Shown: positions 23,980 through 24,402, counted from the first letter of the stretch. The stretch: 64,000 bases of DNA from Escherichia coli (GCF_003334385.1 NZ_QOWN01000009.1); one strand, 5' to 3'. Translations and numbers: made by a program. Notes: a model not told the origin generated them from the sequence alone.

Positions 23980-24402
23980 GGGTAACCCGTGTAAATCACA
24001 AAAGTGGAACCAGTGTAGCGAAATAATTTAATCGGAGGCTTTCTCTTTTTTATTTCTTTTGGCAGGTGATTAATTTTTTAACAGCAATAATTACAAAGTT
24101 AAAACATTAGAGAATGAAAAATGTCCAGCATAATCCCCTGAATGATAGTGAATTATTCCGCCCTTTGTGCCGTTATTTTATGCTGACAAAGGCACTTTTT
24201 TCTGTTTATCTATCAATAAATTCAGAATATTATCTGTTCTTAATCGACTGAAAAATAGGGATTTTAATCGCTATTATCACAAAATACTGCGCTAACCCCT
24301 TAATCAGACAGGCAAAAACAGTGCAGTATAAAAAAAGAACAGTCTGATTTGTTAACACATAAAAACAAAGCAACACAACATCACGAATGGGGATTTTTGA
24401 CT

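Follow-up and report, generated by a model that had tools for sequence, protein, structure and literature searches.

Organization of the panM-livK Intergenic Region

In the 64,000-nucleotide stretch of Escherichia coli DNA analyzed here, hereafter the window, panM (23596-23979) and livK are separated by 423 bp (23980-24402), the ATG of panM lying at 23979-23977 on the minus strand and that of livK at 24403 on the plus strand. Because panM runs leftward from 23979 and livK rightward from 24403, this gap is a divergent promoter region and not simply the upstream region of livK. A preliminary description had placed it upstream of livK, which it does indeed border; that description left out the divergent promoter region of panM, together with the panM start and a GcvB target. 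The features located in the gap are collected in Table 1.

The gap had been described as about 420 bp of AT-rich sequence, longer than most intergenic gaps in the window, and this was borne out. It ranks longest of the 44 intergenic gaps in the window (median 122 bp; the runner-up, ugpB/livF, has 398 bp), with a G+C content of 0.33 vs. 0.50-0.60 in the flanking genes, and its AT-richness is the fourth among the 25 window gaps of at least 100 bp. The annotation of E. coli strain 300709 supplied the gene positions for this ranking; the strain has 99.9% identity to the half of the window that holds the gap. Over ~31925-64000, position-by-position identity to this strain is only 95%, vs. 99.9% in the first half, which suggests an indel or a strain-specific segment somewhere on the rtcB-ugpA side.

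The 423-bp gap was found, once each and at 95-100% identity, in 5425 of 5426 complete E. coli genomes. No annotated feature lies under it in complete E. coli genomes, the K-12 and PGAP annotations being likewise empty there; its K-12 counterpart is NC_000913.3 3597561-3597983, between livK (b3458) and panZ/panM/yhhK (b3459). An IS1 element was seen inside the gap of the E. coli blood isolate 4621 (NZ_CP103479.1; positions 2789-3486 of the extracted locus L086). It is inserted at ~24160, between Lrp boxes 2 and 3, and parts livK from the panM promoter as well as from the boxes upstream.

Table 1. Features of the panM-livK intergenic region. Positions are counted from the first letter of the window; percentages for Lrp boxes 1-4 are genomes retaining the box, and fractions are consensus positions matched.
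Feature	Position	Strand	Remarks
Whole panM-livK intergenic region	23980-24402	both	423 bp, 33% G+C; divergent promoters and regulatory sites
panM (yhhK/panZ) promoter core	24005-24017	-	-10 TACACT (GCTACACT) at 24012-24017; start A at 24005
Lrp-like box	24016-24030	-	12/15; lies against the -10 and spacer of panM; kept at 11/15 or better in 55% of Enterobacteriaceae vs. 15% background
Conserved block CAGGTGATTA	24064-24073		~60-70 bp upstream of the panM start; from alignment
Lrp box 1 CAGCATAATCCCCTG (CAG-N9-CTG)	24126-24140		12/15; 94% of Enterobacteriaceae, 90% of other families
Lrp box 2 TAGTGAATTATTCCG	24146-24160	scores on both	13/15, best in the region; 91% of Enterobacteriaceae, 0% of other families
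Candidate livK promoter P1	24156-24184	+	-35 TTCCGC (24156-24161), 17-bp spacer, -10 TATGCT (24179-24184); predicted start ~24191, leader ~212 nt
Lrp box 3 CGTTATTTTATGCTG	24171-24185	+	12/15; 100% of Enterobacteriaceae, 100% of other families; holds the candidate livK -10 TATGCT
Lrp box 4 CAGAATATTATCT	24222-24237		near-invariant in Enterobacteriaceae (100%); 80% of other families
Candidate livK promoter P3	-10 at 24228-24233	+	predicted start ~24240, leader ~163 nt
Block TTAAT-N3-CTGAAAAATAnAG	24239-24262		most conserved part of the gap, identity 0.86-0.89
Candidate livK promoter P2	24248-24277	+	-35 CTGAAA, 18-bp spacer, -10 TATTAT (24272); predicted start ~24284, leader ~119 nt
Candidate livK promoter P5	-10 at 24283	+	-10 AATACT (24283-24288); predicted leader ~108 nt
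CGCTAAC motif	24290-24296		order-wide; CTAA in nearly all aligned sequences
Candidate livK promoter P4	24305-24332	+	-35 CAGACA, 16-bp spacer, -10 TATAAA (24327); predicted start ~24339, leader ~64 nt
GcvB target GCAACACAACAUCACGA, C/A-rich	24370-24386	+	livK 5' UTR; pairs with GcvB R1 5'-UUGUGAUGUUGUGUUGU
livK Shine-Dalgarno and ATG	24388-24405	+	GGGGA at 24389-24393, ATG at 24403; block TCACGAATGGGGATT, identity 0.85 across genera

Conservation Across Enterobacterales

Conservation was assessed on 80 loci fetched with PanM as anchor, one genome per species. A LivK/LivJ-type gene lies divergently upstream of panM in 65 of them, and the length of the gap, taken from these loci and from the window itself (n = 66), is 388-471 bp with a median of 420. 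The divergent order holds in Enterobacteriaceae, Erwiniaceae, Yersiniaceae, Pectobacteriaceae and Morganellaceae, including Ewingella, Brenneria and Providencia, and the alignment shows several gap motifs kept in all five families. The Proteus locus has no livK-type gene beside panM.

In the 33 Enterobacteriaceae from outside Escherichia, the gap taken whole matches that of E. coli at an identity of 0.64, and livK third codon positions do so at 0.58, while identity attains 0.84-0.89 in a ~100-bp core (24166-24262) and 0.85 in the Shine-Dalgarno block (24381-24395). The 20-nt bin 24060-24079 has an identity of 0.71 vs. 0.28-0.62 in the neighbor bins. Judging from these alignments, the gap is under block-wise purifying selection.

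The panM Promoter

The 454 start-site survey of Mendoza-Vargas 2009 contains the entry "yhhK -26 ... tttcGCTACACTGGttcc" (PMC2760140 supplement). The panM 5' UTR is accordingly 26 nt long and TACACT, in minus-strand reading, ends 7 nt upstream of 24005. In plus-strand letters this -10 element is AGTGTA, which is near-invariant in an alignment of 20 Enterobacteriaceae. No good -35 element was found for this promoter (AGCCTC stands at that place), and from its sequence the A-tract at 24044-24049 could be a panM UP element.

Lrp-Type Boxes and Lrp Control of livK

The preliminary description had considered the gap likely to hold Lrp-dependent sites for livKHMGF. The E. coli Lrp consensus yAGhAwATTwTdCTr (PMC5554404) is degenerate and AT-rich, a caveat to any count of its matches. 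The gap holds eight that score 12/15 or better, where 500 dinucleotide shuffles yield 2.05 +/- 1.6 (~4-fold; 0.2% of shuffles reach eight; p ~ 0.002). It is also the densest 423-bp stretch of the 64 kb for such matches, with 8-9 vs. at most 4 elsewhere. At a stringency of two mismatches or fewer, there is no enrichment over the entire window (10 sites vs. 7.4 expected), and only one such site lies within the gap.

A box was counted as conserved when it scored at least 11/15 at the aligned position, in the same 33 Enterobacteriaceae and in 10 genomes of other families, the background being 15-19%. This comparative map separates constrained Lrp-type boxes, four of about eight, numbered 1-4 in Table 1, from Escherichia-specific ones: the matches at 24082 and 24275 are found in Escherichia only, and those at 24016 and 24340 are intermediate. 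Box 4 takes the form CAG-N8-CTG in E. coli and CAG-N10-CTG in Erwiniaceae, and the Escherichia-only box at 24275-24289 overlaps candidate promoter P2. The 16-mer CCGTTATTTTATGCTG (24170-24185), over box 3, had already been predicted as an Lrp site in a genome-wide survey (PMC2760140 supplement).

These observations are in line with published work on livK expression. A PlivK-lacZ fusion showed that Lrp activates when leucine is absent and represses in its presence (PMC2374795), a 12-fold induction of the livK promoter without leucine was reported (PMC7373191), and ChIP located Lrp at the livK and livJ starts (PMC10127797). The expectation of Lrp sites is thus supported by the excess of matches over shuffles, by four boxes kept in 91-100% of Enterobacteriaceae, and by the agreement of ChIP and PlivK-lacZ data. 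Both Lrp-like sites and conservation of the region across enterobacteria were found.

Several E. coli promoter regions controlled by Lrp, such as those of ilvIH and pap, have multiple upstream Lrp sites. Like these multi-site promoters and that of livJ, the livK gap is AT-rich, carries degenerate boxes over ~150-200 bp, responds to leucine and is bound by Lrp in vivo. Unlike them, it has boxes whose spacing looks irregular: the centre-to-centre distances of 20, 25 and 52 bp do not make a clean three-turn (~30-bp) register of the kind expected for regular wrapping, a reading that the loose definition of a box makes tentative. A second difference is that Lrp occupancy is unusually insensitive to leucine, livK-livJ being the sole unit among 142 Lrp-regulated ones to keep Lrp occupancy in leucine while expression changes, from which further factors at the livK and livJ promoters were inferred (PMC10127797). 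Since Lrp stays bound in leucine while expression changes, simple Lrp occupancy does not explain the leucine response. The livK array also differs from the compact promoter of livJ in being much longer and in being common to the divergent panM.

Other sequences were also noted. A 7-bp inverted repeat, CCTTTGT...ACAAAGG at 24162-24193, encloses box 3; by eye, the flanks of this box in other genera are different and also roughly symmetric, e.g., GCGCTTTG...CAAACTGCGC. Inside the panM coding sequence (codons ~8-12), CGCTAAATTTTTCTA at 23943-23957 matches the Lrp consensus at 13/15. An IHF-like sequence, TATCAATAAATTC (24211-24223), was dropped, not being conserved in the alignment.

The GcvB Target and the livK Ribosome-Binding Site

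The C/A-rich target in the livK 5' UTR would form with GcvB a 17-bp duplex of -32.2 kcal/mol, of which 14 contiguous pairs (24371-24384) are Watson-Crick. It ends at 24386, two bases before the Shine-Dalgarno run GGGGA. Complementarity was counted as exact 13-mers against K-12 gcvB, because a duplex scan with a 42-nt GcvB segment scored background windows almost as high. By this count, perfect 13-mer complements occur on the two strands of the 64 kb only at 24371 and 24372, in the livK leader, and at 22258, in the livJ leader. Orthologous leaders mostly keep a 7-8-nt GcvB seed at the same place.

According to PMC9299463, the GcvB-livK R1 target was verified in Salmonella and is termed "conserved", i.e., not separately verified, in E. 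coli; PMC2639303 has livK in the GcvB benchmark set of Sharma 2007. As in the GcvB targets livJ, oppA, dppA, argT and gltI (Sharma 2007, cited in PMC9299463 and PMC2639303), a C/A-rich complement of the G/U-rich R1 lies by the ribosome-binding site in the mRNA of an ABC-transporter binding protein. Nothing substantive sets livK apart from these targets; in other genera its seed is shorter, at 7-8 nt.

Evidence for a Divergent Control Region Common to panM and livKHMGF

Taken together, these results make it very probable that the gap is a divergent control region common to panM (leftward) and livKHMGF (rightward), with an Lrp array and a GcvB site. Transcription of panM begins 26 nt ahead of the ATG, from a TACACT -10 element. 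A row of Lrp-type boxes occupies the central ~170 bp (24126-24300), four of them held across Enterobacteriaceae and three across the order, and published data show Lrp at this promoter region in vivo, activating livK without leucine and repressing it with leucine. In the final ~35 nt ahead of the livK ATG, a near-perfect complement of GcvB R1 adjoins the Shine-Dalgarno, and repression of livK by GcvB was verified in Salmonella. We propose that Lrp multimers may occupy boxes 1-4 in a cooperative manner, the AT-rich DNA being wrapped at the livK promoter or immediately upstream of it. Leucine would then remodel the Lrp complex and not remove it, and this change in the complex would make the livK promoter, which the boxes overlap or closely precede, toggle between an activated and a repressed state. 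In rich medium, translational repression of livK would be added by GcvB, paired next to the ribosome-binding site. We attribute the unusual length of the gap to the packing of a 5' UTR and a long Lrp array together with the promoters of both genes, and not to a structured RNA leader.

In these terms the gap is the already-known livK regulatory region, livJ/livKHMGF being a textbook transport locus controlled by Lrp and GcvB. The analysis places expected elements on the sequence, with little import beyond annotation. The fact that the gap is common to livK and panM is a modestly useful pointer for panM regulation, this Lrp-box-rich gap being shared by panM and livK in most Enterobacterales.

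Candidate livK Promoters and the Leader Question

No mapped livK start was found in the supplements of Kim 2012, Conway 2014, Mendoza-Vargas 2009, Ettwiller 2016 and Yan 2018. From sequence, five candidate livK promoters were recognized, none of them strong, with leaders of 64-212 nt (Table 1). On the minus strand of K-12 NC_000913.3, their predicted starts would fall at 3597772 (P1), 3597723 (P3), 3597679 (P2), 3597668 (P5) and 3597624 (P4). The -35 element of P2 is invariant and its -10 element is not kept outside Escherichia; the hexamer aligned with the -10 element of P4 is TATAAT in Kluyvera, and the cross-species promoter-likeness of P4 is at background.

It is possible, though we hold it to be the less likely case, that transcription from P1 or P3 gives livK a leader of 160-210 nt, covering much of the gap, and that control is exerted partly after initiation, for example by Rho-dependent premature termination. 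P1 has the top sigma-70-like PWM score in the gap, and its hexamers are similar to TTCCAA-16-TATGTT, the mapped promoter of livJ. P1 and P3 are moreover the only candidates whose promoter-likeness is kept across genera (97% of Enterobacteriaceae vs. a background of 9%; P1 is also promoter-like in 70% of other families). P1 overlaps Lrp boxes 2 and 3, however, and since both P1 and P3 are located within Lrp boxes that are conserved and have a -10-like consensus, this conservation is explained without promoter function, and the promoter and Lrp-box readings are computationally inseparable. The start from P3 would also fall in a pyrimidine run. Genetic work attributed to Quay and Oxender in 1977 and to Williamson and Oxender in 1992 is said to have implicated Rho and premature termination in LIV-I regulation. 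The 454 survey (PMC2760140), by contrast, shows no livK-strand start in the gap, its entry "livK -398" being a panM read; livK is, however, repressed in rich medium.

RNA structure bears on the same alternative. The longest candidate leader, 24191-24420, folds somewhat better than shuffles (z = -2.4), whereas the short candidate leaders, as single sequences, fold no better than shuffles (z = -0.1 and +1.3). RNAalifold gave zero consensus pairs over 24240-24420 in 38 Enterobacteriaceae. The gap (23980-24402) lacks an intrinsic terminator both on the livK strand and on the opposite one. No conserved ORF was found in the gap that could be a leader peptide, and a permissive Rfam scan of 21500-25500 gave no match in the gap even at E <= 1. 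In the absence of an Rfam family, a terminator, a consensus fold and a conserved leader peptide, an attenuator or riboswitch is not supported. Accordingly, the long leader suggested in the preliminary description is not supported as a structured RNA, and the check for a leader or attenuator structure proposed with it was negative; as to length, the candidates allow 64-212 nt.

Attenuators of the ilvL, leuL and thrL type share with livK a leucine-responsive operon and a possible untranslated leader of up to ~200 nt. The livK gap differs from them in having no leader peptide and no U-tract terminator hairpin; it also shows neither conserved helices that could alternate nor a match to an Rfam leader family, and lacks every defining feature of an attenuator leader that was tested.

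In E. coli, a 10-bp hairpin with a 26-nt loop is possible at 24284-24329 (AUACUGCGCU...AGUGCAGUAU). Its arms are, by eye, partly kept in Pseudenterobacter, but it is not recovered in the consensus fold of the 38 genomes, which also speaks against the long-leader alternative. A terminator-like sequence, GTGCC...GGCAC-T6 (24168-24201), was dropped on account of its 19-nt loop and of a stem that is not conserved. A sigma-54 reading of AGGCAAAAACAGTGCA (24310-24325) was likewise dropped, the GC of the -12 element not being conserved in other genera.

The Invariant Block 24239-24262

The most conserved part of the gap, kept across five families, does not fit the Lrp consensus: the block 24239-24262 scores 10/15, where the median of the background is 9. 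Three identities come into question: an Lrp site of atypical form, the target of another factor, or a -35/UP element. With 0 expected, the window has exactly two copies of the pattern TTAAT-N3-CTG-N1-2-AAAATAG, one preceding livJ at 22145-22164 and one preceding livK at 24240-24258. Conservation across the order was seen for the livK copy; that of livJ is present in three of the four Escherichia-lineage loci examined, being absent in E. albertii, and in no other genus.

One reading of this block, which we consider rather unlikely, is that a second DNA-binding factor acts there, and perhaps at the CGCTAAC motif (24290-24296), and together with Lrp confers the leucine response. In its favor are the highest conservation in the gap (0.86-0.89), spanning five families, the background-level Lrp score, the copy of the pattern upstream of the co-regulated livJ where none was expected by chance, and the leucine-insensitive Lrp occupancy at livK-livJ, for which other factors were invoked by the authors (PMC10127797). 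Against it, the block can be read in other genera as a YAG-N10-CTR variant of the Lrp box, and it may equally be a -35/UP element, CTGAAA being the -35 element of candidate P2. The livJ copy of the pattern is moreover confined to Escherichia, and no known factor's motif was matched to the block.

Returning to the divergent control region, one extension of it can be offered only tentatively, as a suggestion that we judge improbable: a co-regulator, or Lrp in an unusual binding mode, would act at the block, and through the same array panM, too, might be made to respond to branched-chain amino acid status. The first part, if true, would explain the high Lrp occupancy in leucine despite the switch in expression at livK and livJ, and this non-Lrp-like block offers something concrete to address in the puzzle, raised in print, of leucine-insensitive occupancy. 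As for the second part, panM/panZ is required for PanD maturation. By way of panM, the coupling would extend to PanD maturation and to the synthesis of pantothenate, and it would fit the conservation of the divergent panM-livK order and of the gap length across Enterobacterales. A Proteus mirabilis lrp mutant has been reported to need pantothenate (PMC2374795); the Proteus locus, as noted above, has no livK-type gene beside panM.

Improbability of a Hidden Gene

The gap had also been described as ORF-free, and in the sense that matters this is true. Mechanical ORFs of 42-48 codons can be drawn at 24114-24251, 24167-24295 and 24230-24376; they were rejected, as other genera mostly have no start codon there, the frames shift and in-frame stops appear. 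Conservation in these ORFs has no 3-base (codon-position) periodicity. Certain of their stop codons do recur in 22-24 of 38 genomes, because they are placed within conserved motifs.

That the gap hides an unannotated small protein or sRNA gene is thus highly improbable. The mechanical ORFs and their recurrent stops are what could be cited for such a gene, but they lack conserved starts, frame and codon periodicity, and the gap has no Rfam match at E <= 1, no terminator, no conserved fold and no K-12 or PGAP annotation. That it merely spaces the genes with AT-rich DNA, or is filler gained by horizontal transfer or bound by H-NS, without sequence-specific function, is hardly credible: the low G+C (0.33) and the toleration of an IS1 mid-gap by one clinical strain would agree with it, but it is refuted by a conservation of 0.84-0.89 in the core vs. 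0.58 at synonymous-type positions, by the length and gene order kept across the order, and by a motif count exceeding that of dinucleotide shuffles.

The Paralogous livJ Locus

The last ~60 nt upstream of livJ and livK are paralogous, since both carry a C/A-rich element and GAATGGGGATT. Beyond these ~60 nt, local alignment of the two upstream regions gave no overall significance for paralogy (p = 0.11), and the 19-20-nt element that livJ and livK share is not conserved upstream of livJ outside Escherichia.

In the gap between livJ and panM, REP-type palindromes at 23443-23498 match Rfam naRNA4 (CssrE) on both strands, below the gathering score (40.4 and 26.3 bits vs. a threshold of 59.5). Such REP/naRNA4-like matches, outside the panM-livK gap, were the only ones in the Rfam scan of 21500-25500.

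Upstream of livJ, a palindromic Lrp-type box, TAGCAGAGTATGCTGCTA at 22197-22214, scores 13/15 on both strands and overlaps the published livJ start (-101, ~22204; PMC2760140). This box and the -35 TTCCAA and -10 TATGTT elements of livJ are essentially invariant in 16 genera. In the livJ leader, ACAACATCACAAC at 22258-22270 is the only GcvB-perfect 13-mer of the 64 kb that lies outside the livK leader.
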